Positions 21,207 through 48,765 are shown, numbered from the stretch's first letter. The stretch: 64,000 nt of DNA from an uncultured Bacteroidales bacterium (GCA_937901925.1 CALGTS010000058.1:4605-68604), one strand, 5' to 3'. Notes: generated by a model not told the origin, from the letters alone. Numbers and translations are program-made.

Positions 21207-21294
21207 GGAGAGATGGCCGAGTGGTCGAAGGCGCACGCCTGGAAAGTGTGTAGGCGCCGAAAGCGTCTCGAGGGTTCGAATCCCTCTCTCTCCG
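21207..21294 (+). tRNA. tRNA-Ser (GGA)
   Basis: GGAGAGA acceptor pairs with TCTCTCC. GGCCGAGTGGTCGAAGGC D-arm, anticodon loop CTGGAAA, long variable arm, T-arm GGGTTCGAATCCC. 88 nt. Confidence 0.9.
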
Positions 21295-25651: not shown

Positions 25652-25703
25652 TCCTGCATATCATTTTTTGATGTAATTTTGCATTTTTATTAATTGCATT
25701 TCT

Positions 25704-26714: not shown

Positions 26715-26721
26715 AAGGCGA

Positions 26722-28956: not shown

Positions 28957-28972
28957 AAAACTTCTATAAAGA

Positions 28973-29003
28973 AAGCCGTTTACATAACGTGAACGGCTTT
29001 TTT
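28973..29003 (+). terminator. Terminator at the left edge of the CRISPR-Cas island
   Basis: AAGCCGTT...AACGGCTT hairpin followed by a T-run. It lies between convergent genes. Confidence 0.55.
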
Positions 29004-29048: not shown

Positions 29049-30212
29049 TCACTTCGCCAGTTTACGCATATCTTGAATTACCTGCACCAACTCTTTCTGC
29101 GAATTTATCATCTCCCCATCCACAAACTGAATATCCATATTCGCGGCGATACGTTTCAAATCCTCTTTGTGGTCTTTCTTAAGCGAAAAGATATAGCTGT
29201 AGCAGGAGATTCCCAGCATCATCTCACGAAGAGCGCACACCTTATAGACAATTTCGTTAAACATTCTTTTTCCTTGCACTCCTGATTTGCATTCAATCAC
29301 AAAGAGTTTGTTATTCTTGATGCACACCACATCCAACTCGTTATTGAGACTAACGCCTTCACGACCGATATGGGGACCTATTAGCGCTTCGTCGGGTTGC
29401 AGATTCTCAATCACTTGATAATAGACATACTCCTCGAACCAGCCGCCTGTCAGATACTCCAACTCAGGTTTTAGCAAAACGCCTTTCTTGATAGGAAAGA
29501 AACATATACTATCCAAAAAAGCAGAAAGATTCGGAATTGGTGGTTCTTTTTTATCTCCACCACGTTCCACATTTCCGATATCGATTCGTTTTTCATCGCG
29601 ATAGGAGTTTCGAAGGATCTCCAGCACATCATAATCAGCATTTGTCAATTGGCCGCTGGTAAAAATAGTGAGGAATCGTTCTGCATCCTTCCTTGAGCGG
29701 ATTGGTTCGAAATCCTTTAGATTTTTGATATCATGTTTCACGGAATGAATCCGCAGATATTCCGCCACCGACATCCGATATTTGACAAGAAAGAAATGGT
29801 CATCATCATCATAGATACTATCGTCGAACACTGACTTTACGATTACATTTTTCTCCACGTCGAGGTAGTAGTAGTCGGCGTGAAACTTCTCGAACACCTG
29901 TTGCACAGCGAGAGCCATATAGTGGGTTCCGCCGGCGAGGTTCACGCAGTAGCGGACGCCAGGAACGAGGCGTGCGCGCACAGTACGGCAAATCTTCTCG
30001 TAGGTAATCTCGTCCATATCGTGTTTCAGCACCACCTCATCAATTAGGTTCGATGGAACGTCAAATTGTTCTGCCAGGGCGTCCAGATCCTCCTCAGTAT
30101 CCTTCGCGGAGATAAAGAGCAATCTATCGCCAGATTCATACATCTCCTTAATAAAGAGATATGCGGGCACAGGATTATCTTCGGTAACAATATTTACAAT
30201 AGTTTTGGGCAT
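29049..30212 (-). CDS. Can2/Card1-like cOA effector #1: N-terminal CARF + C-terminal PD-(D/E)xK nuclease
   Basis: 387 aa. CARF-like Rossmann N-terminus (IVNIVTEDNPVPAYLF...VNLAGGTHYMALAV). LTGGWFEEYVYY, then ELDVVCIKNNKLFVIECKSG (D-x13-E-x-K). Confidence 0.7.
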   Translation of the reverse strand: MPKTIVNIVTEDNPVPAYLFIKEMYESGDRLLFISAKDTEEDLDALAEQFDVPSNLIDEVVLKHDMDEITYEKICRTVRARLVPGVRYCVNLAGGTHYMALAVQQVFEKFHADYYYLDVEKNVIVKSVFDDSIYDDDDHFFLVKYRMSVAEYLRIHSVKHDIKNLKDFEPIRSRKDAERFLTIFTSGQLTNADYDVLEILRNSYRDEKRIDIGNVERGGDKKEPPIPNLSAFLDSICFFPIKKGVLLKPELEYLTGGWFEEYVYYQVIENLQPDEALIGPHIGREGVSLNNELDVVCIKNNKLFVIECKSGVQGKRMFNEIVYKVCALREMMLGISCYSYIFSLKKDHKEDLKRIAANMDIQFVDGEMINSQKELVQVIQDMRKLAK

Positions 30213-30231
30213 AAGGAATTAATTGAGGTTG

Positions 30232-30239
30232 CAAAGGTA
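30232..30239 (-). promoter_or_regulatory. -7 promoter box (TACCTTTG) for Can2-like #1
   Basis: Reverse complement of CAAAGGTA, 20-27 nt upstream of ATG 30212. Suggests this gene is its own transcription unit. Confidence 0.4.
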
Positions 30240-30305
30240 TGAAAAAATCCTTTGAACAACAAGATTGAATACTCATTAAATTTTTATAGCTGCCCTATCC
30301 AGCCC

Positions 30306-30671
30306 TCACTCATAATATCTAAATCTTTCAAATTGGAAGACAACCTCTTTTTTCTGACCAGAACTATCCATATTAACAATGCGTTTGGTTGTTGAAGCAA
30401 CACAATTTATATTCCTATTTTTCAACCTCTTAACCAAAGAATATGCAAAAGTTTGCTCTCCCATCAAATGTACAACCACATTTTCTCTTTCTGCTATGAG
30501 TAGAATTTTTTGTAAATATTCATCAGCTAACTTTGAAATATAATTTTCATCGGCAGACTCGTCAATATGAGGGAATGGCATATCTACGACTTTGCCGAAA
30601 AGTTGTATTGCTGTTCTTTTTTGCTTCTCGCTCCAAATATTTGACGGATGATTCGTAAAATTAAGTAACAT
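30306..30671 (-). CDS. 121-aa orphan Rossmann-like CRISPR-linked protein, paralog of the N-terminal domain of helicase 44707..46755
   Basis: MLLNFTNHPSNIWSEKQ...VVHLMGEQTFAYSLVKRL...NCVASTTKR...FERFRYYE. The start ATG overlaps the upstream stop (TAATG at 30669-30673). ORF-track start 30704 trimmed. I cannot assign a named family from memory. Confidence 0.5.
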   Translation of the reverse strand: MLLNFTNHPSNIWSEKQKRTAIQLFGKVVDMPFPHIDESADENYISKLADEYLQKILLIAERENVVVHLMGEQTFAYSLVKRLKNRNINCVASTTKRIVNMDSSGQKKEVVFQFERFRYYE

Positions 30672-31906
30672 TACAATATTTTTTTTAACTGTTCTGATCC
30701 ACAAATCAATTTTTTGTCTAAAATCTTTATTCTCGAAAGGGAAGCTCTATTAAGCAAGCCCTGCATTTTCTTTAATTTATTACTATCACTTCCTATATAT
30801 TCTTTAAAATCTGTCAAAGTAAAAATATAGGATTTTGCAAACAACCCAAATTTTGTTTTCAAAGCATCTGATTTATAAATAGTTTCACCTAATATTTCAA
30901 CTGGTTTTTCAATTAAAATTGGATTATTATTTTCATCAAAACAAAGTTTCCCCTTCTTATCCTTCTTCTGTTTTTGCTCTATATTTATGATTGACGTTTT
31001 ACATTCAATTATATGAAATTCGCCATTTTTCATAAACATCACATCAATTTCATTGGGTGTATAGTCTTCGCTTGTATCTTTAATTCCAAAATCTGCAATA
31101 GGATTAAGGTCTTTTTTGTCAGCAATTTCTTTTCTAATCTGTGCTCCAATTAAAATATCACCATCACCCAATTCTAATTCTTTTTTCAAACGCTCTCCAA
31201 CATATTCTTCAAACCATTCACCTGTAAGATATTTAACCTCCAATTTATCTAGACAATTTTGCTTTTTGGGAGTATAACCTATTGCGTTCAGAAATTCATT
31301 AACTCGAGAACAATCTCTTAAACCATCTTTTCTTTTCTCTCTCAGTATCTTAAGTTCCTCCTTATAGGTATCAAATACACCATTGCAAAAATGGTTAAAA
31401 ATAGAATTTGTAACATCAAATTCAACTCCGCTTGATTCTGTGGTCTCAAAATCAAACCCATACGCATATAAGTACTCTCTAATACCGATATGGGCACTTA
31501 ATTTTAACTCTTCGTACGGAGACTTCATATTCAAGCGACAATCATTTCTTCCTGTAAGGTAGTAAATTTCCGTATTACTTTTATTAACGAAATAATCATA
31601 TACTGCCAGCGACATTATCTTTGTTCCTCCAGTAATGTTCACAATTATTCTTTCGTAATTATCATACTTAATACTATTCAATTTCTGCTCAATATCACAT
31701 TGTGAATATTCATCAACTACAATTTTATAAATAGGACAATTCGTGATATTTGCAGATTTTTCAACCCATTTACACACACCTTTTCGCTCCATACTTTGTG
31801 TTGAAACAAAGAGATAATCAGGTTTCACGGACTTGTATTCCTTAATAAGTTGCACATTAGGTAAAGTCTGATCACTTACCAATGAAACCAACAATATTTT
31901 TCCCAT
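30671..31906 (-). CDS. Can2/Card1-like cOA effector #2: CARF + PD-(D/E)xK nuclease
   Basis: 411 aa. MGKILLVSLVSDQTLPNV...VNITGGTKIMSLAVY (CARF). LTGEWFEEYVGERL, then EIDVMFMKNGEFHIIECKTS (D-x13-E-x-K), with a Lys-rich insertion after the ExK. Confidence 0.7.
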   Translation of the reverse strand: MGKILLVSLVSDQTLPNVQLIKEYKSVKPDYLFVSTQSMERKGVCKWVEKSANITNCPIYKIVVDEYSQCDIEQKLNSIKYDNYERIIVNITGGTKIMSLAVYDYFVNKSNTEIYYLTGRNDCRLNMKSPYEELKLSAHIGIREYLYAYGFDFETTESSGVEFDVTNSIFNHFCNGVFDTYKEELKILREKRKDGLRDCSRVNEFLNAIGYTPKKQNCLDKLEVKYLTGEWFEEYVGERLKKELELGDGDILIGAQIRKEIADKKDLNPIADFGIKDTSEDYTPNEIDVMFMKNGEFHIIECKTSIINIEQKQKKDKKGKLCFDENNNPILIEKPVEILGETIYKSDALKTKFGLFAKSYIFTLTDFKEYIGSDSNKLKKMQGLLNRASLSRIKILDKKLICGSEQLKKIL

Positions 31907-31908
31907 AA

Positions 31909-33048
31909 TTATTTTGTATTAATGTTAAACAACTCGCTTTCCAACAAAAATTGAAGAGCCTTTTCTTCTGTTAAACCTAAATGGCTATCTTGCAACGAGA
32001 ACGACAAAATACCGTGCTCCTCGCATTTTGCTTTTGCAATATCCGTCATCTTTGCATCTGTGACAAACACCCCCTTACTACCCATGCCTCCATAGTTTTT
32101 AATAACACTACGAAATTTATCAATATCTGTTATGTTATTAATCTGCGTCTTGCACTCTACAAACAGCACTTTAGAACCTGTATTTACAACTATATCTGCT
32201 TCGTTTTTATCTACGTCTTTTTTGTACGGAAATTTGCAATTCATACAAATCTCCTTGCTTCTACTCCACGTACTGAGATATTTTGCCACTTTAAATTCAA
32301 ACCAACCACTATTAAACGCCAAATCCACTGCATTAGTAGACTCTAACTTGACCTCTTTTGACTTTCCGTTCTTTTTTATCAGAAAAACACGCACAAAGCC
32401 ATCTTGTTGTTCTGTAGTCTTTTCCCACTCCACATAAGAGCCCGAAATATGTTCAAACTTACCATATTTACAATTCTTTAAAATGTGCTGTTTTTGTTTA
32501 TCTAAAACGGTCAACAATGCATTAAATGTCTGAACAGCAAAATTTCTAATCTCCTCAATTTTCTTCATTGCTTCAACATCTGCTTCGGTGTAATCTGAGA
32601 ACTTTTTATAATTATTCTCTATAGAATTGCCATAAAGCCGAAAGTGGGTATGCATATCAAACTCAAACTCTTGCAATCCTTGCATTGTTCTATAATTCCA
32701 CAATACATTATTCTGGTCCATATAGACTATAGTAGCATTTTCCTTAGATTGGAACATTACACCAAATAGATGAGACCACGACTTCGGACCACTTGAAATA
32801 TTGACAACAACTTCATCTTTCGCGTATTGTTCTGCCAACTTTTTAACCACCTTTTGTATTTCTACGGCTTCCGTAGGCGATAATTGAACCGACTCATAAG
32901 GAACATTTATCTCCTTGATTAACGCATTCAAAGCCTTAAGACTATCTATCGAATGCACAAATACAACTTTATCTGGATTTGTTGCCTTTATCCCATTATA
33001 CACTGGAGCTGGCTGTCCTCCTACTAATGTTATGTGTATTTTACTCAT
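31909..33048 (-). CDS. Can2/Card1-like cOA effector #3: divergent CARF + PD-(D/E)xK nuclease
   Basis: MSKIHITLVGGQPAPVYNGI...VNISSGPKSWSHLF (CARF-like, with the GGT motif replaced by SGP). NSGWFEFKVAKYL, then EADIVVNTGSKVLFVECKTQ (D-x13-E-x-K). ORF-track start 33066 trimmed. Confidence 0.65.
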   Translation of the reverse strand: MSKIHITLVGGQPAPVYNGIKATNPDKVVFVHSIDSLKALNALIKEINVPYESVQLSPTEAVEIQKVVKKLAEQYAKDEVVVNISSGPKSWSHLFGVMFQSKENATIVYMDQNNVLWNYRTMQGLQEFEFDMHTHFRLYGNSIENNYKKFSDYTEADVEAMKKIEEIRNFAVQTFNALLTVLDKQKQHILKNCKYGKFEHISGSYVEWEKTTEQQDGFVRVFLIKKNGKSKEVKLESTNAVDLAFNSGWFEFKVAKYLSTWSRSKEICMNCKFPYKKDVDKNEADIVVNTGSKVLFVECKTQINNITDIDKFRSVIKNYGGMGSKGVFVTDAKMTDIAKAKCEEHGILSFSLQDSHLGLTEEKALQFLLESELFNINTK

Positions 33049-33052: not shown

Positions 33053-33631
33053 TTACATTTTTTCACACAACCTCAATGCCAACCCAGACCACAACTCAAA
33101 TTTTTCCAAATTTAGTTCTTTCGGATTTTCCCATTGGGGCAAACCGATTTCTGCGTCAAATCTCATCTGTCCCACTGCTACATTCACTCGAAAAACTACT
33201 CCGGTATGACAATGTCCTACCGATGTCTCCTCTTCGTTTATCATGCCCAACAACTCCACATCGCTATCATGCAAGGAAACGCCTACCTCCTCTCTAAACT
33301 CTCGCTTCAAACCTTGCAAAAGGGTGTTGTAAGGTGTTAACTGTTTATCTCCGTCTGTCACATGTCCGCCAATGCCTGCCGAACGGATTCCCTTCAATCG
33401 TTTTTCACTACCACATCTCTGATAGGTTAACACTTGCCCCTTTGCATTAAACACCAATGCATACGCTATCAATTGCTTGTATGTATAATCCTGCTCTAAA
33501 AATGCTCTTTTCTCAAAACACTGTGGCAATCTATTTAATTCCTCTACGGTTATTTGCCATGAGCACAAATTTAAATCAAATGCCAGCCGCATCTGCTCAA
33601 CTGGTACACATAATACATTTTCGTCTTTCAT
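33053..33631 (-). CDS. NUDIX hydrolase, translationally coupled to the CARF-adenosine deaminase
   Basis: 192 aa with a Nudix-box core ...GIGGHV...LLQGLKREFREEVGV. Its ATG overlaps the deaminase stop (ATGA at 33628-33631). Confidence 0.75.
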   Translation of the reverse strand: MKDENVLCVPVEQMRLAFDLNLCSWQITVEELNRLPQCFEKRAFLEQDYTYKQLIAYALVFNAKGQVLTYQRCGSEKRLKGIRSAGIGGHVTDGDKQLTPYNTLLQGLKREFREEVGVSLHDSDVELLGMINEEETSVGHCHTGVVFRVNVAVGQMRFDAEIGLPQWENPKELNLEKFELWSGLALRLCEKM

Positions 33632-35664
33632 AACAAATCCTGTTTTATCAATTCACTAATTTTTTCCTCAACCCTTCTTATCAACTGTTTCTTCTGCTCA
33701 TAGGGATAGAATGCTGTTCGAAAACCGTTACACGTCAATTGCAACAAATCCCACTTGGACAGACCACCTCGTGTTAGGCGTGCCGCCCTATGCAACTCTT
33801 GGGTTGGGGTTGTTAAGGAAATCCCCGGATTATCTGTATTCACTGATACCTTCAATTCGCAGTCAAGATATTTTTTCAACGGATAATCTGGCATGTTTTG
33901 AGTTCCAGAAAAATAATTATCTCTATATCCTACAATCTGATAATTACTGCTCGGGCACATCTCTATACCAATACCCCGCTCCAAAAACTTAACCATCAAA
34001 TCCTCTTTTTCTATCAACTTCAATCCATGTCCAATACGTTCTGCTGTCAAATAATAAACTGCCTCCCAAATATTTTCTGCCGGAGCTGTTTCGCCTGCGT
34101 GTATTGTGATGTTGTAACAATCTTTCATTATCTCCAGGAATTGTTCTCGCACCTCCTTAGGTGATTTGGCACTTTCATCTCCAGCCAAGTCAAAACCTCT
34201 GAAATACTTCTTAAATAAAGCATCATCCTTCAACTGTTTTGTCAGCTCTATACTCTGCAGGATTTTATCATCTCCACCATGACGAGAGGCTATCATTATA
34301 ACAGAAGTTTCCACCTCCGGTTCTCTTTCCAATTCTTCAAATATAGCTTGCAGAACTTGATTCGGGCTTAATATTGATGTCTGATAATTAATTGGAGAGC
34401 AGCGTATCTCTAGGTATGCAATATTCTCTTTTTTACACTTTGATAAGAGAATTTGGACAGTTTTCCTTATGGCAGTTTCATTACATAATAGAGCCGAACC
34501 CTGTAAATCGCCTAAACTCTCGTATGCATTAATACCTATTGACTTATAATCTGACTCTTGAATGTAATTTCCGAATATTATTTGCTCTAGTGCTCTTGGG
34601 TTATCTTCATATTCCAAAATAAATCTTGACGCAATTAATCCTTTATGAACACCTAAATGGTTTTCCAAAGCTTTATACCAATCTTTTATTGGCAACTTCT
34701 TATCATACTTACAATCCCATTTACTATAGAGTAAGTTTTGCTTTTTTTCCTTTTCAATCAAAGGTAGATAACACTTAGCTACCTCTATCATCTCTTCTGC
34801 TGTCAATACACCACCAAGATGACAATGAAGGTCTGACTTAGGCAATCGTTGCAAATACTCTAATTCCTCTTTTTGTTTTGATGGGTCGATTCCTAAATAA
34901 TCCGTTTTCAGTTCCTTAATTTTTGATGGAGGCAATGTGTAAAGGATATAAAAATTGGAACGAGTCTCTTTTTCATCCAAATAATATGTTGTATAAAAGT
35001 GTTGCGCATTTCTTTTTTGATTCTGAATATCTGTCAAAAAATCTGTATCCGGTGTACATTTTACAACAACACCTTCGTCAAAATAAAGATCCTTCACTTT
35101 CAAAACCTCATTTTTCTTGATTGCTCCTAAATTCAATGGAAAAGCCTCTTCTTTCCTATCTCCTAAAACATGTATGAGTGCATCGCACCCAAAGCAATAG
35201 GCTGCCTCCTGAAAATCAGCACTCATCGTTTTTCGTCCGCATGCCAATGATAAATACAATCTTCCGCCATCACATTGCTGTCTTGCATAAGCAATCACTT
35301 TATAAGCAAGGTCTCTGTATTGAAAAGCTTCATCATCATTAGTAATATCATTTACACCTTGCAGAACAAACAAACGAATACGTTTTACATACTTACTACA
35401 ACTTTCTTCTATCTGTTTAAAATCTTCAAAAGTTGATTTAATATCTCTGAAACTCCCTTTTTTACCTTCCCTATCGGTTGCAACAAGCCATAGTTCATCA
35501 ATAGGGAAAGAGGAAAAATCAGCCTCTTCTCTACTCGTTTGTATGCTCTGAAAGGAGACTAATTTTTCATAAAAATCAATCTCCTTAAAATTAATATACC
35601 CAACCGTCTCTTCAATAATATCAGGTTGTGCACCTAATGCCGAAACCAATATATTTTTGACCAT
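33628..35664 (-). CDS. cad1: Cad1/CAAD-type CRISPR-associated adenosine deaminase (N-terminal CARF + C-terminal ADA domain)
   Basis: 678 aa. N-terminus MVKNILVSALGAQPDIIEETVGY (CARF-like Rossmann). C-terminal ADA motifs LPKSDLHCHLGG (HxH), ITIHAGE and SVNTDNPG. Confidence 0.85.
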   Translation of the reverse strand: MVKNILVSALGAQPDIIEETVGYINFKEIDFYEKLVSFQSIQTSREEADFSSFPIDELWLVATDREGKKGSFRDIKSTFEDFKQIEESCSKYVKRIRLFVLQGVNDITNDDEAFQYRDLAYKVIAYARQQCDGGRLYLSLACGRKTMSADFQEAAYCFGCDALIHVLGDRKEEAFPLNLGAIKKNEVLKVKDLYFDEGVVVKCTPDTDFLTDIQNQKRNAQHFYTTYYLDEKETRSNFYILYTLPPSKIKELKTDYLGIDPSKQKEELEYLQRLPKSDLHCHLGGVLTAEEMIEVAKCYLPLIEKEKKQNLLYSKWDCKYDKKLPIKDWYKALENHLGVHKGLIASRFILEYEDNPRALEQIIFGNYIQESDYKSIGINAYESLGDLQGSALLCNETAIRKTVQILLSKCKKENIAYLEIRCSPINYQTSILSPNQVLQAIFEELEREPEVETSVIMIASRHGGDDKILQSIELTKQLKDDALFKKYFRGFDLAGDESAKSPKEVREQFLEIMKDCYNITIHAGETAPAENIWEAVYYLTAERIGHGLKLIEKEDLMVKFLERGIGIEMCPSSNYQIVGYRDNYFSGTQNMPDYPLKKYLDCELKVSVNTDNPGISLTTPTQELHRAARLTRGGLSKWDLLQLTCNGFRTAFYPYEQKKQLIRRVEEKISELIKQDLL

Positions 35665-35693: not shown

Positions 35694-35993
35694 CTACAAC
35701 TCCATTACCTTTGGACAAGTTACTTTCAATATCTCCTTGCGAATATCATCAGGTACAACTCCGCCTCCATAATACCTCAAACTTACAACATTGGTTACAT
35801 TCTGTACCGTAAAATGCTTTTGTCTTATTTTAAATGAGCCACAACTTAATTCTACTTTTTTCCAAAACTGGTTACGTATATCGGTATAGAACACGTAAAA
35901 TATTGCAATATTAGCCATTGCTCTAACAGCTGATATAAAAACAACATAACTATTGAACCACTCCGAAATTACATCAAGAATATCTTTTTCCAT
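35694..35993 (-). CDS. Hypothetical 99-aa protein with one predicted TM helix
   Basis: ORF only. Hydrophobic segment YVVFISAVRAMANIAIFYVFY. Ends 29 nt upstream of the cad1 start. Confidence 0.35.
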   Translation of the reverse strand: MEKDILDVISEWFNSYVVFISAVRAMANIAIFYVFYTDIRNQFWKKVELSCGSFKIRQKHFTVQNVTNVVSLRYYGGGVVPDDIRKEILKVTCPKVMEL

Positions 35994-36030: not shown

Positions 36031-37371
36031 TCATAACTCTTTCTCTAATATTCGCTCAATCTGTCCGACATAATAAAACGGAACATTAATCAACTTAAAT
36101 TGTTTTCCTTTGAAAGTTGTCACATTATCAACAGAATAAGGATTAGACCAAACTCTGATTGCGATGGCGTGCGGAGCTTTCTCCATAAAAAGATGCAACG
36201 ATTTGAGTTTAGCATTATGCCCAGACTTTACCTCTATTGGAACTACTAAATTTCTGAACTGATATAGAAAATCGACCTCGGCATCCGAGCCATCCTTATC
36301 TCTGCGCCAATAGTTATGACGAAGTGACACATCGTTGTCATACGCCACAAGCTCTTGGGCAACTATATGTTCTGCTATTCTACCTCTCCACACTTCACAT
36401 ATATCTTTTGCCGAAAAAACATCATCCTGAACCTTTGAGGCATAATTGACAATACCCGTATCCACCCACAACAATTTAGGGCGTTTCTTAAAATTAGGTA
36501 ATATCGGTATGTGAGTATCTGATGTGGGATAGACCAATTCTGTCAGCATGGCTTTTTCAATAATTTGGAAAGCCTCGCTCATTTCTCGCGACCGATAGTT
36601 AGAACCTCCAAAGCCTTCGAACGAAATGGTCTCTGCAGCGCACTGCCACCCATAAGTCATTATTGTACGTATCACCTTCACCATTGTTTTGCTACTTGTA
36701 TATTTCTCTACATCATCTTTGTAGGCTTGCAACAATGAATTGAACACGCTTGAACACGACAAGAGATCTCTTCGCTTTGCATATTGCATAATCACAGCAG
36801 GCATTCCGCCTACCAGAATATACTCGCGAAAAAGCTGCATTACTCGGTGATGTACAACAGAATCAACGTTGAAACTCGTTACAAGATTTCTATCAAAATC
36901 TTCGCCAATACCGTCCAAAAACTCCCAAAAAGAACATGGCCGTAAAGACATAAACTGCACTCGTCCTACAGGGAATGAAATTTTACGAACATCCATCACC
37001 GTCTCTAACAAAGAACCTGCCACTATTACATGAATATCCTTTGCCTCTTCGTAAAAATAGCGAAGAATTGCCACCGCTTTCTTAGAGTTTTGTATCTCAT
37101 CAATAAAAAGTAGCACAGAACCATCGATTTGTTCCTGTTTTTTATAGAAATAGATAGATTTCAACAATTGATGCACATCATCTGTCTGCTCAAACAATTC
37201 AGAATCTCGACTTCGTTCAAGATTAAGATACAAAAAAGTATCAAAATCCTTTGCAAACTCTTTCACCAAGGTTGTTTTACCAACTTGACGAACGCCCCTG
37301 ATTATTAAAGGTTTTCTATCTTCAGAACTTCTCCATTCTTTTAGTTTATTTATTGCCAATCTTCTTATCAT
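36031..37371 (-). CDS. AAA+ ATPase with C-terminal DUF4143 (PD-(D/E)xK-like) domain
   Basis: Walker A GVRQVGKTT, Walker B LLFIDEIQ, C-terminal DAEVDFLYQFRNLVVPIEVKSG. 446 aa. Confidence 0.8.
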   Translation of the reverse strand: MIRRLAINKLKEWRSSEDRKPLIIRGVRQVGKTTLVKEFAKDFDTFLYLNLERSRDSELFEQTDDVHQLLKSIYFYKKQEQIDGSVLLFIDEIQNSKKAVAILRYFYEEAKDIHVIVAGSLLETVMDVRKISFPVGRVQFMSLRPCSFWEFLDGIGEDFDRNLVTSFNVDSVVHHRVMQLFREYILVGGMPAVIMQYAKRRDLLSCSSVFNSLLQAYKDDVEKYTSSKTMVKVIRTIMTYGWQCAAETISFEGFGGSNYRSREMSEAFQIIEKAMLTELVYPTSDTHIPILPNFKKRPKLLWVDTGIVNYASKVQDDVFSAKDICEVWRGRIAEHIVAQELVAYDNDVSLRHNYWRRDKDGSDAEVDFLYQFRNLVVPIEVKSGHNAKLKSLHLFMEKAPHAIAIRVWSNPYSVDNVTTFKGKQFKLINVPFYYVGQIERILEKEL

Positions 37372-37641: not shown

Positions 37642-38766
37642 TTATTCCTGTAATGATAATTTTACAAATCCCAATAACTCACAAACATCATCAACTCTTC
37701 TTGTCTTTGGAAAATCATACTCACTATAGTTTTGGTTATTTGGTCGAGACACTGGAACTACAAGGCTTTCAAAATTATCTAAGTCTCTTGCCCATCCTCC
37801 AGTTATGAAGTTCCAACCAGAGCCATGACCTATGCGCAACACACACTCTTTCCCTTTGCCACAGTTCTGAGCTTCGTTCTTTATTGATTCAATCTTCTCC
37901 AAATAACACTCTACTTTATCTGAATCATCTCTATCTGACCGTTCTTTCCAATATTCCAATTCAAAATCTAATAAACGAATTGTGTGGTTATTAATTGCTT
38001 CGAATAAAGATTCATAGGATGACATAATATTAGGCAAATCGCCAATTGTAGACCATTTCTCTTTCGATTTATTATAACCTTCTACATTAAGCTTCATCTC
38101 AAACCTTGTTATATCTTCGGAAGGTAAAGCTTCAATCATTTGAGATTTACTTTTATCCCAAAAAATTTTTGATGTTCGCTCATTTATATTCACCATTCGC
38201 AAAGATACTGTATAACATTCCCCAAAATAAGCATCACCAACTTGCAGAAATCTGAAAACATCATTATTTGGGTCACTACCAAACAACTCCTTTTCTACCT
38301 TATTGGCATTTGTTTTTTTCTTACCATTGGCAGAAACATCTATTTTTCTTTCTGCATCATTGACATTCTCAGCAAGAGATGCAAGTATTGCTGTCCTAAT
38401 CGCTCCTTTTATCGAACTACCAGGTATGTACGGTTTACCCTGTCCGTTATGAATATGTTCCTTCAATGTGTCTCTCTCATGAGCTTCTGACCATTCCAGA
38501 ACTATACGTTTCGCATAATCTTCAACTTTAGCATTGGGAGCAAATCGTTTAACCACATTACCTGTGGATTCCTTACGTTCAATCGCCACCACCCAATCTT
38601 GAAGATGTTCTTCACCAATCAAATCCAACACTTTTTCAGGAGAAACTACCGCCAACACATAATTGTTGCCCATCTTTCCTTTCACAAAGTCAGAACCTAT
38701 TTGCAAAACCTCACCGGAGCCTATATGCACAGATGTCAAAGTTTTTATCTTAACTATTTTTTTCAT
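37642..38766 (-). CDS. csm5: Type III-A RAMP protein Csm5
   Basis: MKKIVKIKTLTSVHIGSGE... and KPYIPGSSIKGAIRTAI RAMP motifs. Last gene of the csm operon. ATGA overlap with the csm4 stop. ORF-track start 38841 trimmed. Confidence 0.8.
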   Translation of the reverse strand: MKKIVKIKTLTSVHIGSGEVLQIGSDFVKGKMGNNYVLAVVSPEKVLDLIGEEHLQDWVVAIERKESTGNVVKRFAPNAKVEDYAKRIVLEWSEAHERDTLKEHIHNGQGKPYIPGSSIKGAIRTAILASLAENVNDAERKIDVSANGKKKTNANKVEKELFGSDPNNDVFRFLQVGDAYFGECYTVSLRMVNINERTSKIFWDKSKSQMIEALPSEDITRFEMKLNVEGYNKSKEKWSTIGDLPNIMSSYESLFEAINNHTIRLLDFELEYWKERSDRDDSDKVECYLEKIESIKNEAQNCGKGKECVLRIGHGSGWNFITGGWARDLDNFESLVVPVSRPNNQNYSEYDFPKTRRVDDVCELLGFVKLSLQE

Positions 38767-39758
38767 ACTATATTCTTCTTTATAGGTACAACAAAAGGTT
38801 TCCCACTCCTGTAAATTGCATGCATCTTTTCGTTGTTCCACTCAGGCTTCAAGTTAACAATTGCACCTTCAAGATTTTTTGACGAAGTTATGACAGAGCC
38901 TACGTTAAACATATATACAGATTTTTTTCTCAAATGACGAAATCTTACCTCTTCACTACCCGAAATAAAACCTCCTCTAAGCAAAAGTTCATAACTCGAA
39001 TTTTCCAAATCTATACACTTCAACTCTTCTTCTGTTGGAACATATAAAGATAACAACATAAAGGAGTCCGCATCTTGCACATCCTGAACAATCTGCTTAT
39101 CAACTTTTTCTACCTCAAAACGTCCTCCTCCCACACTTCTGTCTGTCCCGATACCAATTTCTCCTAACTCCTCAAATAGAGTTTTCAATTCTATTTCAAG
39201 GTCATCTGGTGCGTCCAAGATACAATAAAGCCCCGCATTTTCACGAAAATAGGTCCAATCAAAAAAGAACGGTTCGGTCTTTCCATCTCCTCTCGGCACG
39301 CTCACTCGTTGATTCACTTGCGATTTTGAGGGCGAATCGAATTTCTCAAAAGCGCCTGCCGAAAGCAGATAATCTCCTTGCAACTGTTCTTCTTTAACTT
39401 CTATTTCTTTGCCTCTGATCAAATCTTGCCACAACAAGGAATCCACGAACTTCACCTTTTTCAGTTTTTTTCGATAAGCATGCTCTTCTTGACCTTTTAC
39501 ACGCACATTTAACCGACCTTGCACTTTTGGCAAAAAATAAAACTCGCCAAAATATGGGAAAGCAGAACTTACCACAAAAGACATCAAGAACGATTCTATA
39601 TCAGAAGATTTTCCCTTCTGAGCTCTTAAAGAAGCTAACGCAGACGACAAAGTATCGCTATGAAACACAGAAGAGGAGAAATCGTAATTCTCCTTTCCTG
39701 TACCGATATGCAGAGGAGTAAGATTCTTAAATTTTATTATAAATCTACTCATAATCAA
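38763..39758 (-). CDS. csm4: Type III-A Csm4 (Cas5-like RAMP)
   Basis: FKNLTPLHIGTGKENYDFSSSVFHSDTLSSALAS, a typical Csm4 N-terminus. Position between csm3 and csm5 with ATGA overlaps on both sides. Confidence 0.8.
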   Translation of the reverse strand: MIMSRFIIKFKNLTPLHIGTGKENYDFSSSVFHSDTLSSALASLRAQKGKSSDIESFLMSFVVSSAFPYFGEFYFLPKVQGRLNVRVKGQEEHAYRKKLKKVKFVDSLLWQDLIRGKEIEVKEEQLQGDYLLSAGAFEKFDSPSKSQVNQRVSVPRGDGKTEPFFFDWTYFRENAGLYCILDAPDDLEIELKTLFEELGEIGIGTDRSVGGGRFEVEKVDKQIVQDVQDADSFMLLSLYVPTEEELKCIDLENSSYELLLRGGFISGSEEVRFRHLRKKSVYMFNVGSVITSSKNLEGAIVNLKPEWNNEKMHAIYRSGKPFVVPIKKNIV

Positions 39759-40402
39759 TACTCTTTTACAACACCATTATCAATGTCAAGTCCTTCAAAC
39801 TTAATCTGACCATATCCACGTGAGCCATGACCACCCAAATAGTCGTCTTCTAACAATTCAATTGCCTGTTTAAGCGTCTTCTTCAGTTCTTTTTCATCTT
39901 CACCTTCAAATACATTCAACACCATGTTTAATTTAAACTTAGCCCCAGCCGGAACACGTTCAAACGTACGCGGATTTGCCTTAGCCGTTACTCTATCAAT
40001 TGCAACTTCCGTCTTACTTTCTGTATAAGGCAAGTCTGTATTACTAAAATCACAAGCATCAACATCCAACTCTGCATCTCTAACAATCAGACGAGATGGT
40101 CTGTTATTATCAGAACCTGTTGCAACACCAAACAACTTTCCAGAAACCGAATCTGGATCCTTACTTGGTCCTACTTTTCCTCTGTCAACTTCGACGCAAC
40201 CATTTGCAATCTCTACCAACGCACGCATCTTACCCTTCAAAGAACTGCCCGGAATATAGGGAATATTGTTAATAGGATTTCTAACCACAAACTTGTCCGG
40301 ACCTCCAATATTCAACGCTGCATTTGTACCTCCAATATGCAAACCTGTTTTTAGCACTATTGTGCCTGTATATAATATTTTCTTTACTAATTTCGTAGCC
40401 AT
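39755..40402 (-). CDS. csm3: Type III-A backbone RAMP Csm3 (Cas7), with Asn at the catalytic Asp position
   Basis: TGLHIGGTNAALNIGGPDKFVVRNPINNIPYIPGSSLKGKMRAL and C-terminal DDYLGGHGSRGYG. Collinear with S. epidermidis Csm3 as I recall it. Confidence 0.9.
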   Translation of the reverse strand: MATKLVKKILYTGTIVLKTGLHIGGTNAALNIGGPDKFVVRNPINNIPYIPGSSLKGKMRALVEIANGCVEVDRGKVGPSKDPDSVSGKLFGVATGSDNNRPSRLIVRDAELDVDACDFSNTDLPYTESKTEVAIDRVTAKANPRTFERVPAGAKFKLNMVLNVFEGEDEKELKKTLKQAIELLEDDYLGGHGSRGYGQIKFEGLDIDNGVVKEY

Positions 40403-40442
40403 ATTTTTACTTTTTATGATTTAACAAATTAAATAAAATAGA

Positions 40443-40928
40443 TTAATCTTTACCTCCGTTAGCTTTATGATAAGCCAAAACCGCCTCCATAAGATTGCAA
40501 AAATTCAAATAAGATTTCTGATTCGTAACATAAACAAAACACTCATCAAATAATTTTTTAAAAAGTTTGAGCCCTTCATTTTTTTCATCTCTTCCTAGTG
40601 CATAAGCAACTTTCGGTTTCAACAAATAAAAAGAGGACTTCTCCTTTTCAAATTCACCCATTTGAATTCTCTTTATTTCGCCGTACACATTACGAATTTT
40701 AGAGTTTGTAAGACCATTTTTTGCCATAAACTCGCCAACTTTTTCTGCAAAATCAACCAAATCTGGCGTTGCTCCATTTATAATCCACTCACGATTATAT
40801 GCAGGGTCTAATTTACTCCAAAACGTATCTGACTTAGACGATCTATCGCTTGAAGCAAAACCGCCCCCATTGTTACCTCCGTGAGGTCTGTCATTTCGTC
40901 TGTTTGTATTAAAATTCATATTACTCAT
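40443..40928 (-). CDS. csm2: Type III-A small subunit Csm2 (Cas11)
   Basis: 161 aa, helical, located between cas10 and csm3. Has a Gly/Asn-rich N-terminal extension. Confidence 0.7.
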   Translation of the reverse strand: MSNMNFNTNRRNDRPHGGNNGGGFASSDRSSKSDTFWSKLDPAYNREWIINGATPDLVDFAEKVGEFMAKNGLTNSKIRNVYGEIKRIQMGEFEKEKSSFYLLKPKVAYALGRDEKNEGLKLFKKLFDECFVYVTNQKSYLNFCNLMEAVLAYHKANGGKD

Positions 40929-40955
40929 AATATCTTTATTTAATTGATTAATACT

Positions 40956-43478: not shown

Positions 43479-43486
43479 ATTTTATA

Positions 43487-44179
43487 TCATTTTTTTACAT
43501 TTCTCTTCATCATTTTCACCATTCCCATGCCGAGGCTGGTACCTTTTCCCAGTCCGCAGAAGTCGGGTAAGGAGACGTTGGTCTTGAATTCCACGTCGAA
43601 ACTCATCATCTTGACACCCTTATAGAGTTCCAGACGGGGTTCCTCCATTTTTAAAATCTCACAAGTAATGTCTCGTTCAAGGCGTATGCCCAGACCTTTA
43701 CACATTGAGAGTATATTGCCCACCAAAATCCGCTGCAGGAACTCTGCCCGCGCAGCCAACCCTTCTAATTGTAAAAACTCATTGTAATTGTTAGAGTTAA
43801 AAGGTAACCATTTACGCAGGGTGTAACGAAAAGTGTCGTCCCACGCCTGCACTAAAATTTGCTTGGCATCTACACTGTCAATCTCAAAACGCTCCTGCTC
43901 TCGGTTGCCAATCTGCAAGTCGAAGTCGCACGACGAGAAGAACTCACCAATCGCCTCAACCCCATCACCAATACAAACTATTGCCGCCTTCCCACCAATC
44001 CGCTTATATTGTATCAGCGGATATGAGTAGCGCAAACCCTCTTCAGTATGACCACTAAAGAACTCATCGTGCGGAGTACCACAAACACGATCCAAAACTG
44101 CGCCACGGAAGAATCTAATCTCAGTTTGCCGTAATGGATTTTTAAATCTCACAACCAACAATTTAATTCTTGCACCCAT
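43487..44179 (-). CDS. cas6: Cas6-like crRNA endoribonuclease
   Basis: 230-aa RAMP-like protein with a C-terminal glycine-rich loop CGLGKGTSLGMGMV. First gene of the interference operon. Confidence 0.65.
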   Translation of the reverse strand: MGARIKLLVVRFKNPLRQTEIRFFRGAVLDRVCGTPHDEFFSGHTEEGLRYSYPLIQYKRIGGKAAIVCIGDGVEAIGEFFSSCDFDLQIGNREQERFEIDSVDAKQILVQAWDDTFRYTLRKWLPFNSNNYNEFLQLEGLAARAEFLQRILVGNILSMCKGLGIRLERDITCEILKMEEPRLELYKGVKMMSFDVEFKTNVSLPDFCGLGKGTSLGMGMVKMMKRNVKK

Positions 44180-46755: not shown

Positions 46756-46764
46756 AAATAGATT

Positions 46765-47748
46765 ATGGAACTTATAATCAGCACTTTTGGCACATCACTC
46801 AACCGTGAAAATGAAGGTTTTGTCATCACTACAACAGAAGGAAGACAGCGCATTCCGGCAGAAGGAATTACCTCGATTCAAATTAGTCGTGGCGCGCAAA
46901 TCTCTTCCGATGCGGTAATGTTAGCAATGGAAAAAGAGATTGAGGTGCTATTTATGGATAAAAATGGCAATGTAACAGGCAGAATCTGGAGCCCCAAATA
47001 TGGTTCTGTTTCCACAATACGCAAAGGGCAGCTCAATTTCTCATTCTCTACAGAAGCTATCCGATGGATCAAAGAGGTTATCTGCCAAAAAATTGAAAAC
47101 CAACAAGCCCTGCTGCTCACTTTTGAGAGTTCTGACATTATGATTCAGAATCACGTTCAGAAATCGATACGCAGGCTAGAAGATTACCGCACGAAAGTTT
47201 CCACCATCAACGGAGAGGTAATCTCGGATATAGCCTCCACTTTAAGAGGTTGGGAGGGATTATCGTCGAAAATCTATTTTGAAACGCTAAACCTTTTTCT
47301 TCCAGAACAATACCGTTTTGAAAAAAGAAGTCAACATCCTGCTACCGATGTTGCAAATGCATTTCTGAACTACGGCTACGGCGTTCTATACGGGAAAGTA
47401 GAGGGCGCACTCATCAAAGCAGGCATTGACCCATATATTGGAGTTTTACACCGCGACGACTACAACCGCCCCGTATTGGTGTATGACGTCATCGAACTCT
47501 ATCGCGTTTGGGTTGATTATGTAGTTTTTACCCTTTTAACCCAAAATGTAATTACTGATGAATTCTATTCTGTACAATCAGATGGCTCCTATTGGTTAGA
47601 ATCTTTAGGAAGACGAGTACTGATACAATCGCTAAACGATTATTTGGAAGAAACTATTGAAGTAAATGGAAATAGTCGTTCTCGTGCCTATCAAATTTTT
47701 CTATATGCTCAGAAGCTAGCACAACAATTTAAAAAAGCAGAACGATGA
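46765..47748 (+). CDS. cas1: Cas1 integrase
   Basis: 327 aa. NAFLNYGYGVLYGKVEGALIKAGIDPYIGVLHRDDYNRPVLVYDVIELYR, the Cas1 C-terminal catalytic region. Confidence 0.9.
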   Translation: MELIISTFGTSLNRENEGFVITTTEGRQRIPAEGITSIQISRGAQISSDAVMLAMEKEIEVLFMDKNGNVTGRIWSPKYGSVSTIRKGQLNFSFSTEAIRWIKEVICQKIENQQALLLTFESSDIMIQNHVQKSIRRLEDYRTKVSTINGEVISDIASTLRGWEGLSSKIYFETLNLFLPEQYRFEKRSQHPATDVANAFLNYGYGVLYGKVEGALIKAGIDPYIGVLHRDDYNRPVLVYDVIELYRVWVDYVVFTLLTQNVITDEFYSVQSDGSYWLESLGRRVLIQSLNDYLEETIEVNGNSRSRAYQIFLYAQKLAQQFKKAER

Positions 47749-48761: not shown

Positions 48762-48765
48762 CACA

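Follow-up and report, generated by a model that had tools for sequence, protein, structure and literature searches.

Three Can2/Card1-family effectors of apparently ancient divergence in one type III-A CRISPR-Cas operon of a Paludibacteraceae-like bacterium

The window analysed here, a stretch of 64 kb, contains three minus-strand ORFs, designated A, B and C, which lie at the downstream end of one type III-A (Csm) CRISPR-Cas operon in a Paludibacteraceae-like, gut-type Bacteroidales bacterium. They were recovered exactly where the initial annotation had placed them. All 14 genes of the operon run in the same direction, and from Cad1 to Csx20 neighbouring genes overlap, or lie apart, by no more than 4 nt according to the ORF coordinates. 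Beyond the Csm genes and A, B and C, it carries Cad1, a NUDIX hydrolase and a Csx20 ring nuclease. It thus encodes four CARF effectors, three of the same class (Can2/Card1) and Cad1 as the fourth. The features of the locus are as follows:

28972..29000, minus: terminator-like hairpin, AAAGCCGTT / AACGGCTTT, with an 11-nt loop and a T-rich tail (read from the sequence)
29049..30212, minus: paralog A, A-type Can2/Card1-family effector, 387 aa (Pfam PF23400 and PF09002)
30213-30305: 93-nt spacer between Csx20 and A
30232..30239, minus: TACCTTTG, a match to the Bacteroidetes -7 element TAnnTTTG (motif match only, read from the sequence)
30306..30671, minus: Csx20-family small CARF-like protein, 121 aa, predicted cA4 ring nuclease (PADLOC PDLC01397)
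30671..31906, minus: paralog B, B-type Card1-like Can2 effector, 411 aa (Pfam PF23400 and PF09002)
31909..33048, minus: paralog C, C-type Can2 effector, 379 aa (Pfam PF23400 and PF09002)
33053..33631, minus: NUDIX hydrolase, 192 aa (Pfam NUDIX, E = 4.6e-07)
33628..35664, minus: Cad1, CARF-adenosine deaminase effector, 678 aa (Pfam A_deaminase, 6.9e-47; Cas_NE0113 CARF, 4.8e-08)
35694..35993, minus: conserved 99-aa ORF between the ATPase and Cad1 (gene call in L001, L002, L004, L011 and L174)
36031..37371, minus: AAA_14/DUF4143 ATPase, 446 aa (Pfam; PADLOC PDC-S01, E = 4.2e-178)
37642..44179, minus: type III-A interference module of Csm5, Csm4, Csm3 (39755-40402), Csm2 (40443-40928), Cas10/Csm1 (40956-43478) and Cas6 (43487-44179)
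44707..49257, plus: adaptation module (Pfam) of a RecD/PIF1-like helicase (44707-46755) whose N-terminal domain resembles Csx20, Cas1 (46765-47748), a CAPP-type primase-polymerase (47745-48761) and Cas2 (48748-49257)
49560..51751, no strand assigned: CRISPR array, period ~73 nt, ~29 repeats (Tandem Repeats Finder)

The interference module was assigned from ORF translations together with the Pfam labels of identical genes in contig L001, and the translated Cas10/Csm1 contains both an HD motif ('LHDIGKF') and a GGDD motif ('SGGDDVF'). CAPP has been described previously (PMC8211822), and the function of Cad1 is taken from published work (PMC11645235). The N-terminus of the helicase matches the standalone Csx20 at 38% identity (E = 6e-23). 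The Cad1 and NUDIX genes share 4 nt where the first ends and the second starts, and the same Cad1-NUDIX pair is found in the related loci L011 and L014. PDC-S01, the model matched by the ATPase, is a PADLOC candidate defence family; the 99-aa ORF was without a match in Pfam or PADLOC searches. The hairpin sits between the convergent ends of A and a GAF-domain gene and, as a putative terminator, marks the end of the operon; a consensus terminator scan passes over it because its loop exceeds 8 nt.

By homology, A, B and C are ordinary members of the Can2/Card1 family, each predicted to combine a CARF sensor (CARF4 clade) with a PD-(D/E)xK nuclease. This assignment, already made in the initial annotation, was confirmed by Pfam, by sequence matches in the PDB, by AF2 models searched with Foldseek and by PADLOC. 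The curated cut-offs of the Pfam models CARF_Card1 (PF23400) and Card1_endonuc (PF09002) were both exceeded by A (E = 1.9e-12 and 8.4e-18, respectively), B (2.6e-36 and 1.3e-09) and C (4.2e-06 and 1.7e-06). The top Foldseek matches of the AF2 models are Card1, Can2, Cdn1 and VC1899, and PADLOC CARF4--CARF_PDDEXK models match the paralogs. The proteins are indeed highly divergent elsewhere, with pairwise identities of 20-23%, while W-F-E and N-E-x-D...E-C-K are invariant in the three-way alignment and, inside each subfamily (~120 members), reach a conservation of 90% or more. The catalytic motif is therefore kept in all three, as had been claimed, and the quoted segments DVVCIKNNKLFVIECK, DVMFMKNGEFHIIECK and DIVVNTGSKVLFVECK are all present, but the spacing is D-x12-E-x-K (12 residues between D and E) rather than D-x13-ExK. 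Likewise, WFE is common to the three, but the proposed '(G/S)GWFE(E/F)' does not hold literally for B, which reads GEWFEE. The genes stand in a row, but the tandem is not contiguous, a 121-aa Csx20 gene and a 93-nt spacer splitting B from A.

Paralog C has the CARF residues G10-G-Q12-P, S33, S85-S-G-P-K89-S-W and Y109, with G replacing T9, and the catalytic residues E251, E283, D285, E298 and K300. It aligns over its full length with PDB 8BAO, a Can2 from a Dysgonamonadaceae bacterium (E = 1.6e-72), matches PADLOC PDLC01889 (E = 7.7e-147), and its stop codon is followed after 2 nt by the start of B. Paralog B has canonical CARF residues (S11-D-Q13-T14, T36, G93-G-T-K96, Y116) and the catalytic residues E233, E286, D288, E301 and K303. 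It matches Card1 at E = 2.9e-25 as a single protein and 1.7e-45 as a subfamily profile, and its AF2 model (pLDDT 91.3, pTM 0.86) matches Card1 in Foldseek at E = 6e-28 with TM 0.70-0.76. The Lys-rich insertion reported after its ExK is real, with ~33 residues following ECK; in the AF2 model it is a beta-hairpin (304-337; strands 307-313 and 331-337), and across the B subfamily its length ranges from 13 to 39 residues. The ATG of Csx20 overlaps the B stop codon by 1 nt. Its product covers the full-length PADLOC model (E = 4.7e-38), carries the precomputed Pfam annotation MJ1673 and scores under the cut-off of NCBIfam Csx20 (E = 2.6e-06).

Paralog A has the CARF loops T10-E-D-N-P, S35-A-K-D-T and G94-G-T-H97 and the catalytic residues E260, E292, D294, E307 and K309. 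It matches Card1 6WXW at E = 1.2e-16 (single protein) and 4.8e-25 (subfamily profile) and PADLOC CARF4--CARF_PDDEXK at E = 1.4e-49; the top Foldseek matches of its AF2 model (pLDDT 83.8) are Card1 6XL1/6WXW (E ~1e-22). The A-type replaces two of five residues reported conserved across Can2 clades (Q by D-N, T by A), and its first ligand loop is, with D-N for Q, one residue longer. Because of these replacements, and because most A-type genes are not beside CRISPR loci, the A-type ligand could differ. The loop strings cited as evidence of divergent sensors (AGGTHY, TGGTKI, SSGPKS) are present and differ in their residues, but AGGTHY is no subfamily trait: the remaining A-type proteins have AGGTRY in 119/119 cases, among them this gene on near-identical contigs, and the window's version arises from a private CGC>CAC change. 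Together with P142L, likewise private, this R97H falls at otherwise invariant positions, and the window's A allele may be impaired through the two. Promoters of Bacteroides have the -7 element consensus TAnnTTTG; the match to it in the 93-nt spacer lies 20 nt upstream of the A start codon.

The initial annotation implied tandem paralogs that had sub-functionalised in place, a history which the comparative data contradict, as the divergence long predates the genome. Each paralog has hundreds of outside relatives at 40-60% identity, as against 20-23% between the paralogs, and GC content differs sharply (A 43.8%, B 30.3%, C 35.4%); on these grounds the three are not local duplicates, but orthologues of three anciently separated, widespread subfamilies, which form three deep clades in a neighbour-joining (NJ) tree. 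A second Can2-family gene lies directly upstream of the B-type gene in 29/66 assessable species-level loci, with the catalytic motif kept in both, and Csx20 directly follows the B-type gene in 39/70. To judge from gene order, C-B-Csx20 is a conserved, pre-existing cassette, common in Bacteroidota. A-type genes elsewhere are solo, 8/40 assessable cases being in CorA-Cmr loci and 32/40 without nearby cas genes, and the closest relatives of A outside this lineage belong to CorA/Cmr type III-B loci. The A+B+C triple is confined to one narrow lineage, in which it also occurs in L174 and L175/L176 (72-85% identity, two chromosomal contexts). Within this lineage, purifying selection acts on each of the three (dN/dS: C 0.06-0.08, B 0.18-0.30, A 0.13). 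Simple redundancy, which had been doubted from the start, is indeed unlikely, since each gene is the orthologue of a distinct ancient subfamily under such selection.

In a comparison of the ligand pockets using the residue list for Can2 clades of PMC12825302, the equivalents of K104 and Y124 are kept in the three subfamilies (with R for K in the A-type), and Q11 is kept in B and C. Csx20 is a cA4-specific ring nuclease with minor cA3 activity and none on cA6, and ring nucleases associate with cA4 effectors only (bioRxiv 10.1101/2024.09.24.614671). Effectors within one locus typically share an activator (PMC11229360). The characterised Can2, Card1 and Cdn1 are all cA4-activated (PMC12825302, PMC7969007); Card1 binds cA6 without being activated, and Cad1-type effectors respond to cA4 and cA6 (PMC12825302). 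This context, in which Cad1 stands beside a cA4-specific Csx20, points to cA4 as a common signal rather than to several ring sizes. The earlier suggestion of different cOA ring sizes found no positive evidence and runs counter to a Csx20 in mid-array, to loci that generally use one signal and to a family whose characterised members are all cA4-activated.

We consider it probable that three Can2/Card1 effectors have been joined here by shuffling, with one shared signal (cA4) and non-identical outputs. The C-B-Csx20 module would have existed first, and the A-type gene would have been added at its end, preceded by a spacer of its own that carries a promoter-like motif. This reading builds on observed features, namely the family to which the proteins belong, their conserved residues at the catalytic site and in the ligand loops, the order of the genes, their conservation and the selection acting on them; for the activating ligand, homodimerisation and substrates, the mechanism is drawn by homology. 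The Csm complex would bind a complementary phage transcript, whereupon the Cas10 palm domain, in which GGDD is present, would make cyclic oligoadenylates. The signal, most likely cA4 for A, B and C, would bind at the two-fold axis of each CARF homodimer and close the nuclease dimer, leading to metal-dependent, non-specific ssRNA cutting and DNA nicking or cutting. Cad1 would deaminate ATP in parallel, and Csx20, encoded between B and A, would degrade cA4 and so reset the system. Given the retention of all three genes under purifying selection, non-identical outputs are most likely; these may differ in substrate preference, sensitivity, kinetics or robustness to phage counter-measures, and specialisation in substrate or sensitivity is plausible.

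That the CARFs instead read different messengers (cA4 as against cA6, cA3 or cA5, with the A-type perhaps responding to a non-cOA ligand), so that the locus decodes several Cas10 products, we regard as unlikely. The loop signatures are invariant within each subfamily (S-D-Q-T, T36 and GGTK in B; G-G-Q-P, S33 and SG(L/P)KSW in C; T-E-D-N-P, S-A-K-D-T and GGTR in A), and the A-type lacks the Q and T reported conserved in all clades (PMC12825302). Its invariant D67-E68 aligns weakly, with a domain E-value that is not significant, with E72-E73 of Cdn1, a pair linked to dual cA4/cA6 activation (PMC12825302). The CorA-Cmr loci that house the closest outside relatives of A represent a class signalling with SAM-AMP in Bacteroides, and Cad1 of the same operon belongs to a cA4- or cA6-activated class. 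However, the core cA4-site residues K/R and Y are preserved in A, B and C alike, and Q in B and C, the sole ring nuclease of the operon is the cA4-specific Csx20, and cA4 activates every characterised family member.

It is more doubtful still that the conserved, translationally coupled C-B pair acts as a heterodimer resembling an unfused Can1 pseudo-dimer, its cOA site asymmetric and its two nuclease halves different, with A as a separate homodimer. The diverged gene found upstream of B-type in those 29/66 loci usually overlaps or abuts it, as does C here with its 2-nt gap; the partner is C-type in Bacteroidales and of a Card1-like clade in Cytophagales and others (NJ tree), and in Can1 the family has a working example of a fused pseudo-dimer (PMC7969007). 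Yet catalytic and ligand motifs are complete in both partners, neither half being degenerate as in Can1; B-type stands without any partner in 37/66 loci, and in Parabacteroides and Paludibacteraceae a Csx1 (CARF-HEPN) gene replaces B beside C-type. The C-type relative 8BAO crystallised alone, as two chains of one sequence, and the C and B interfaces are unlikely to be interchangeable because identity is only ~20%. Least probable in our estimate is partial decay or redundancy, in which A in this strain is a recent acquisition that is dispensable or impaired in function, and the array reflects transient gene flux in a defence island instead of a selected three-part system. Of 139 positions with a conservation of 97% or more, the window's A deviates at two (R97H, within the ligand loop, and P142L), B and C at none; A has its own GC (43.8%), spacer and promoter-like motif, and its synonymous divergence from the otherwise near-identical contig L001 is 0.10 against 0.00 in C, which indicates recombination at A. 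The restriction of the triple to one narrow lineage and the frequent effector swapping in related loci fit such flux. Nevertheless, A is intact with dN/dS ~0.13 across the lineage, R97 is kept in sister contigs, H is a semi-conservative replacement for R that may preserve the phosphate contact, and two different chromosomal contexts retain the triple at 72-85% identity.

Among known systems, Card1 of Treponema succinifaciens (PDB 6WXW/6WXX/6XL1), a cA4-activated CARF-PD-(D/E)xK nuclease (PMC12825302), is the best sequence and structure match of A and B and shares their two-domain architecture, fold and type III association. Its CARF signature (S-x-Q-T-x-P, S-T, GGTK, Y) is kept in B and its NE-x-D...ECK in all three, but identity is only 21-25%; B differs by the Lys-rich beta-hairpin of 33 residues that follows its ExK and by a disordered insert (~261-285), and A by its altered first loop (TEDNP), A for T39 and R/H for K102. 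The 8BAO protein (released 2022), for whose activity a literature search found no publication, is encoded in the type III locus with CAPP, RecD, Cas1 and Cas2 described in PMC8211822, the same locus type as here (RecD-like helicase, Cas1, CAPP, Cas2), but has GGTK where C and its subfamily have SG(P/L)K. Can2 of Sulfobacillus thermosulfidooxidans (7BDV) and Thermoanaerobacter brockii (8Q3Y-8Q44) belongs to the same family, with an E-x-D/E-x-K site and a cA4-binding CARF dimer (Foldseek 1e-17 to 1e-18), but to different clades at 15-20% identity, TbrCan2 being ~50 residues longer. [quoted passage not shown] Can1 of Thermus thermophilus (6SCE), matched in Foldseek by B only (E = 1.7e-12), is a fused monomer of two CARF and two nuclease-like domains from a duplicated Can2-like ancestor and is conceptually akin to the C-B pair, whereas A, B and C are separate genes, each of which encodes a single CARF and a single complete nuclease domain.

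Multi-effector type III loci (PMC11229360) likewise combine several cA4-type effectors and a ring nuclease per operon, presumably with one activator. In that survey Can1 and Can2 count as one class and co-occurrence of three effectors is rare; the present operon has four CARF effectors, and such a survey would collapse the three that share a class. What is new is thus further family members and the combination of three Can2/Card1 subfamilies in one operon. Why a cell should maintain three long-diverged forms of a single signal-activated CRISPR back-up nuclease becomes a testable question.

The initial annotation placed three CARF nuclease genes, here termed A, B and C, within the window, and all three open reading frames (ORFs) are present on the minus strand:

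29049-30212, minus strand, A, ORF of 387 aa
30671-31906, minus strand, B, ORF of 411 aa
31909-33048, minus strand, C, ORF of 379 aa; start codon taken as the ATG at 33048, as in the solved homologue

Fourteen genes run in the same direction here, with the three nucleases towards the 3' end, in the order cas6, cas10/csm1 (whose translation shows HD and GGDD motifs), csm2-csm5, an AAA_14/DUF4143 ATPase that matches PADLOC PDC-S01, a 99-aa ORF, the CARF-adenosine deaminase Cad1, a NUDIX hydrolase, C, B, a small gene and A; the nucleases thus share strand and operon with csm2-5, cas10 and cas6. Each junction from Cad1 to the small gene is an overlap or a gap of no more than 4 nt. C and B are separate ORFs, divided by a stop codon and a 2-nt gap, while the stop codon of B overlaps the ATG of the small gene. 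Strict adjacency of the three nucleases fails between B and A, where the small gene (30306-30671, minus strand, 121 aa) and a 93-nt spacer intervene. Upstream of A lies TACCTTTG, a match at the motif level to the Bacteroidetes -7 element, the consensus used being that of Bacteroides promoters, and a hairpin with a T-rich tail lies downstream of A. A scan for sigma-70 promoters and terminators, a method unsuited to Bacteroidetes, returned background level only. The opposite strand carries, in order, a RecD-like helicase, cas1, a CAPP primase-polymerase, cas2 and a CRISPR array of about 29 repeats. Judged by the source names of close homologues, the host is a Paludibacteraceae-like bacterium of the order Bacteroidales.

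Several other features of the region merit a record. The intergenic region between csm5 and the AAA_14 ATPase holds an imperfect 34-nt direct repeat (37382-37461; 2.4 copies, 85% match), unrelated to the CRISPR repeat, which may be a regulatory site. The 99-aa ORF (35694-35993, minus strand), with neither a Pfam nor a PADLOC match, is kept between the ATPase and Cad1 in all related contigs. Cad1 and the NUDIX hydrolase (33053-35664, minus strand) are a conserved pair with a 4-nt overlap, found also at the related loci L011 and L014; as the NUDIX enzyme adjoins an ATP-to-ITP deaminase, the pairing suggests clearance or processing of ITP/IDP. A term search of two Cad1 papers (PMC11645235 and PMC12669630) found no mention of NUDIX, and a literature search on Cad1 with Nudix in Bacteroidales found nothing. 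The Cad1 locus of PMC11645235 differs from that of the window, and Can2 neighbours are not described there. A cobalamin riboswitch and two tRNA genes are unrelated to the nuclease array:

20902-21084, minus strand, cobalamin riboswitch (94.9 bits)
16228-16301, plus strand, tRNA gene
21207-21294, plus strand, tRNA gene

Sequence comparison assigns A, B and C to the known Can2/Card1 family, as members of three subfamilies (A-type, B-type and C-type). Each scores above the curated cut-offs for Pfam CARF_Card1 (PF23400) and Card1_endonuc (PF09002), and PADLOC CARF4--CARF_PDDEXK models match all three. The best solved relative of A (phmmer 1.2e-16; subfamily profile 4.8e-25) and of B (phmmer 2.9e-25; subfamily profile 1.7e-45) is Card1. 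C matches PDB 8BAO, labelled 'Dysgonamonadaceae bacterium CRISPR ancillary nuclease 2' in the Foldseek library, over its full length (1.6e-72). AF2 models of A and B (pLDDT 83.8 and 91.3) superpose on Card1 and Can2, and in Foldseek searches with these models Card1, VC1899, Can2, Cdn1 and 8BAO make up the top 15-20 matches. An identity with Can1, a single polypeptide of two CARF domains plus nuclease and nuclease-like domains, was rejected, each ORF here encoding one CARF and one nuclease domain only. Sequence matches to Cdn1 (8Z4I) are weak. A has an invariant D67-E68 at a position similar to that of the clade-specific E72-E73 pair of Cdn1, in a CARF-region alignment that is not significant, and no equivalent of Cdn1 F39 was identified.

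Pairwise identity among the three is 20-23%, which bears out their description as highly divergent outside the motifs. Their alignment retains 32 invariant columns, including W-F-E and N-E-x-D...E-C-K. Within these, E292, D294, E307 and K309 (A numbering) are invariant in A, B and C and conserved within each subfamily, so the claim that all three keep the catalytic motif holds, and the motif strings quoted for them are all found in the sequence. The spacing is D-x12-E-x-K rather than D-x13-E-x-K. The (G/S)GWFE motif survives in its W-F-E portion, B reading GEWFEE, and the Lys-rich insert of B after ExK is real, though its length varies from 13 to 39 residues across the B subfamily. AF2 models the Lys-rich stretch that follows ECK in B with confidence as a beta-hairpin, its strands at 307-313 and 331-337; another insert, near 261-285, is modelled with low confidence. 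Homology predicts that all three proteins are dimeric, metal-dependent nucleases gated by cOA. A literature search found no publication on the activity of 8BAO, the solved C-type structure.

The initial annotation treated the nucleases as tandem paralogs. Recent tandem duplication is ruled out by subfamily structure, tree topology and GC content. Searches at E <= 0.001 retrieved 1053 database proteins for A, 680 for B and 759 for C, and the best 120 listed outside the window's lineage are 56-62%, 40-53% and 57-65% identical, respectively; the relatives of each paralog are much closer to it than A, B and C are to one another. A neighbour-joining tree built from Card1, 8BAO and 137 family members of the sampled loci resolves three deep clades; 8BAO falls within the C clade and Card1 close to the base of the broad B clade. 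The GC content (GC3 in parentheses) is 43.8% (50%) for A, 30.3% (25%) for B and 35.4% (35%) for C.

A scan with the B-subfamily alignment, limited to one genome per species, yielded 80 loci that were then searched with subfamily HMMs. A second Can2-family ORF lies directly upstream of the B-type gene at 29 of the 66 assessable loci, usually abutting or overlapping it, and both partners nearly always keep E-x-D...E-x-K. This partner is C-type among the closer relatives of B and of the Card1-like clade in Cytophagales and others. A Csx20-like ORF directly follows B in 39 of 70 loci, the usual order being csm genes, a C-type or Card1-like gene, B, csx20, helicase, cas1, CAPP and cas2. The effector slots are exchangeable between loci. 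Parabacteroides and some Paludibacteraceae have C followed by a Csx1 (CARF2-HEPN) gene in place of B; the 436-aa gene after the C-type gene in Parabacteroides was considered as a B-type homologue and proved to be this Csx1 protein. L011 and L014 read Cad1, NUDIX, a Csx1-like gene, B, Csx20 and helicase, without C. At three further loci (L015, L029 and L056) the Can2-Can2 pair has one of its genes broken into two ORFs, probably a frameshift or pseudogene, so members of the pair can be lost.

The adaptation genes at the end of this order show features of their own. The RecD/PIF1-like helicase of the window (44707-46755, plus strand) carries at its N-terminus a Csx20-like domain (38% identity to the standalone Csx20, E = 6e-23); in related loci a distinct csx20-like gene stands immediately before the helicase gene or overlaps it. 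The coupling of an adaptation helicase to a domain for ring-nuclease activity or cOA binding hints that signalling and spacer acquisition are connected. Between cas1 and cas2, a gene (47745-48761, plus strand) joins a BT4734-like/VirE_N primase-polymerase domain to a TOTE-type TBP-like C-terminus and corresponds to the CAPP_B class of CRISPR-associated primase-polymerases (PMC8211822).

The full order C-B-Csx20-A recurs on contig L174, with B 75% identical, at the same chromosomal site and without Cad1 and NUDIX, and on L175/L176, with B 72% identical, in a different chromosomal context. Nei-Gojobori dN/dS against L174 and L175/L176 is 0.06-0.08 for C, 0.18-0.30 for B, 0.13 for A and 0.12-0.15 for Csx20, and the triple is retained under selection in its lineage. 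Relative to the near-identical contig L001, synonymous divergence is 0.00 in C, 0.026 in B, 0.10 in A and 0.012 in Cad1. Such unevenness suggests that the A end of the array has recently recombined or exchanged alleles. The A allele of the window is itself unusual, carrying H97 (codon 97, 29922-29924, CGC>CAC) in the CARF ligand loop, where 119 of 119 other members have R, and L142, where 117 of 119 other A-type members have P. The AGGTHY given as the loop motif of A is accordingly private to the window strain, other A-type members reading AGGTR. Decay of A in this strain is one of the rival explanations. Sister contigs L001-L003 and a 99%-identical cluster representative keep both R97 and P142, and B and C show no deviations at highly conserved positions.

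Outside the window, A-type genes occupy quite different settings. Among 80 A-type metagenomic loci the triple was seen at L094 only, from the window's own lineage. With a limited set of cas seeds, 8 of the 40 loci with enough flank are CorA-Cmr type III-B loci that end in the A-type gene and have no other Can2, and 32 have no cas gene nearby; in roughly 30 of the 80 the same housekeeping genes stand next to it, encoding phosphoglycerate kinase, a diacylglycerol-kinase-like protein and LD-carboxypeptidase. Beyond its own lineage, the A of the window has its nearest relatives (57-62%) in a set of loci that includes those of CorA-Cmr type. An A-type gene is the sole CARF effector ending the CorA-Cmr III-B loci L009, L010, L095, L097, L099, L106, L108, L109, L112, L113 and L116, loci that contain cas6, CorA, a 136-aa ORF, a 492-aa ORF, a short 478-aa Cas10, Cmr3 and further genes. 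CorA loci of Bacteroides use SAM-AMP as signal. At L100-L173 (for example L140, L150 and L160-L165) most A-type genes, 45-59% identical, lie far from detectable cas genes, between a DAGK/YegS-like kinase, phosphoglycerate kinase and a Por-tail protein upstream and LD-carboxypeptidase and a MORN-repeat protein downstream; such orphan Can2-like genes are reminiscent of VC1899. Four genes beyond A in the window is a DHH/DHHA1 phosphoesterase gene (about 25700-26715, listed as minus strand; L001 counterpart 16333-17343). It is described as opposite in strand to A and belongs to a block of housekeeping genes that every related contig keeps. Enzymes of this class degrade SAM-AMP in CorA systems; the gene is probably a housekeeping NrnA, and could in principle encode a SAM-AMP nuclease.

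The ligand loops had been described as differing between the three proteins, and the differences are indeed conserved and subfamily-specific, as computed within each subfamily on about 120 sequences. B-type loops read S11-D-Q13-T14, T36, T-G-G-T-K96 and Y116, which is the Card1 signature. C-type loops read G10-G-Q12-P, S33, S-S-G-(L/P)-K89-S-W and Y109-M-D-Q-N-N, and A-type loops T10-E-D12-N13-P, S35-A36-K-D-T, A-G-G-T-R97-Y and Y116. Five cA4-binding residues, T9, Q11, T37, K104 and Y124 in Cdn1 numbering, are listed in the Cdn1 paper as conserved across all Can2 clades (PMC12825302). With the positions of K104 and Y124 taken from the Cdn1 alignment and those of the N-terminal residues from Card1 (for C, from the three-way alignment only), B has S, Q, T, K and Y, five of five counting S for T; C has G, Q, S, K and Y, keeping Q, K and Y; and A has T, D/N, A, R (H in the window) and Y, keeping T and Y. 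The first loop of A is one residue longer, with D-N for Q, and elsewhere A replaces T and R replaces K. Judged from these alignments, the basic and aromatic core of the cA4 site appears to be kept in all three subfamilies.

Further information on the signal comes from the small gene, a Csx20 by its profile matches and hence a predicted ring nuclease. It covers model positions 1-114 of 114 of PADLOC Csx20 PDLC01397 (E = 4.7e-38) and scores 27.8 bits against the NCBIfam Csx20 equivalog, below its 70-bit cut-off. The local Pfam search gave no match, the family being seen only through PADLOC and NCBIfam, and a PDB sequence search found nothing for Csx20. Its size, CARF-like character and position in a type III locus beside a predicted cA4 effector are those of Csx20, a cA4-specific ring nuclease (bioRxiv 10.1101/2024.09.24.614671). 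On several grounds cA4 is favoured as the signal shared by A, B and C: the gene for a predicted cA4-specific ring nuclease lies inside the array, ring nucleases occur only alongside cA4 effectors (same preprint), effectors within one locus typically share an activator (PMC11229360), and every characterised Can2/Card1 family member is cA4-activated.

Why, then, would one operon maintain three nucleases of the same chemistry? We propose that they would give different outputs, through substrate choice, sensitivity or resistance to counter-defence, and not act as pure duplicates of one another, because the genes are ancient, compositionally distinct and each under constraint; simple redundancy, already doubted in the initial annotation, is on these grounds the less likely reading. 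One rival to different outputs from one signal is divergence in the ligand itself, above all in A. On the boldest reading the array would be a multi-channel sensor, in which the A-type messenger differs from that of the B/C pair and C-B is a specialised two-nuclease unit. The invariant TEDNP / SAKDT / GGTR pocket of the A-type proteins, the presence of their closest outside relatives in loci of the SAM-AMP class and the many subfamily members far from any CRISPR locus speak for such a messenger, the candidates being cA6, read in the dual manner of Cdn1, and nucleotides outside the cOA class, for instance SAM-AMP; the C-B pair, for its part, is conserved and translationally coupled. We nonetheless regard the multi-channel reading as improbable. 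Were it true, nucleases obeying different ligand rules would work in parallel downstream of a single Cas10. A heteromer of C and B is a weakened alternative, given that B is found without C and C without B and that both keep complete sites; the occurrence of each without the other disfavours an obligate heterodimer in particular, and a literature search on Can2 heterodimers or paralogs found nothing relevant.

Can2/Card1 proteins are an established class of type III CRISPR effectors and are not in themselves new, and the subfamilies are already catalogued, since PADLOC has many CARF4--CARF_PDDEXK sub-models, one of them specific for C. The arrangement is another matter. A locus survey that describes three effectors in one locus as rare puts Can1 and Can2 in a single class (PMC11229360), which renders both Can2-Can2-Csx20 and the four-CARF operon invisible to it; Can2 and Csx20 are absent from the 2025 CRISPR classification paper, and in a searchable literature that is incomplete we found no paper describing either the widespread Can2-Can2-Csx20 arrangement or a four-CARF operon. 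In Bacteroidota loci it is routine for a pair of neighbouring, diverged Can2-family genes to stand ahead of a Csx20 ring-nuclease gene, and in one lineage a third Can2 has been stacked onto these, giving four CARF effectors in a single operon. The locus is consistent with current understanding, nothing in it being contradictory, and makes the question of why several effectors coexist directly testable. Three uncharacterised subfamilies with hundreds of members each, together with the solved, unpublished structure 8BAO, permit a side-by-side comparison. The locus offers a natural and compact test bed for asking why several effectors of the same chemistry are kept under one signalling system, the candidate answers being partitioning of substrates (DNA versus RNA), graded sensitivity, resistance to phage inhibitors and different ligands.
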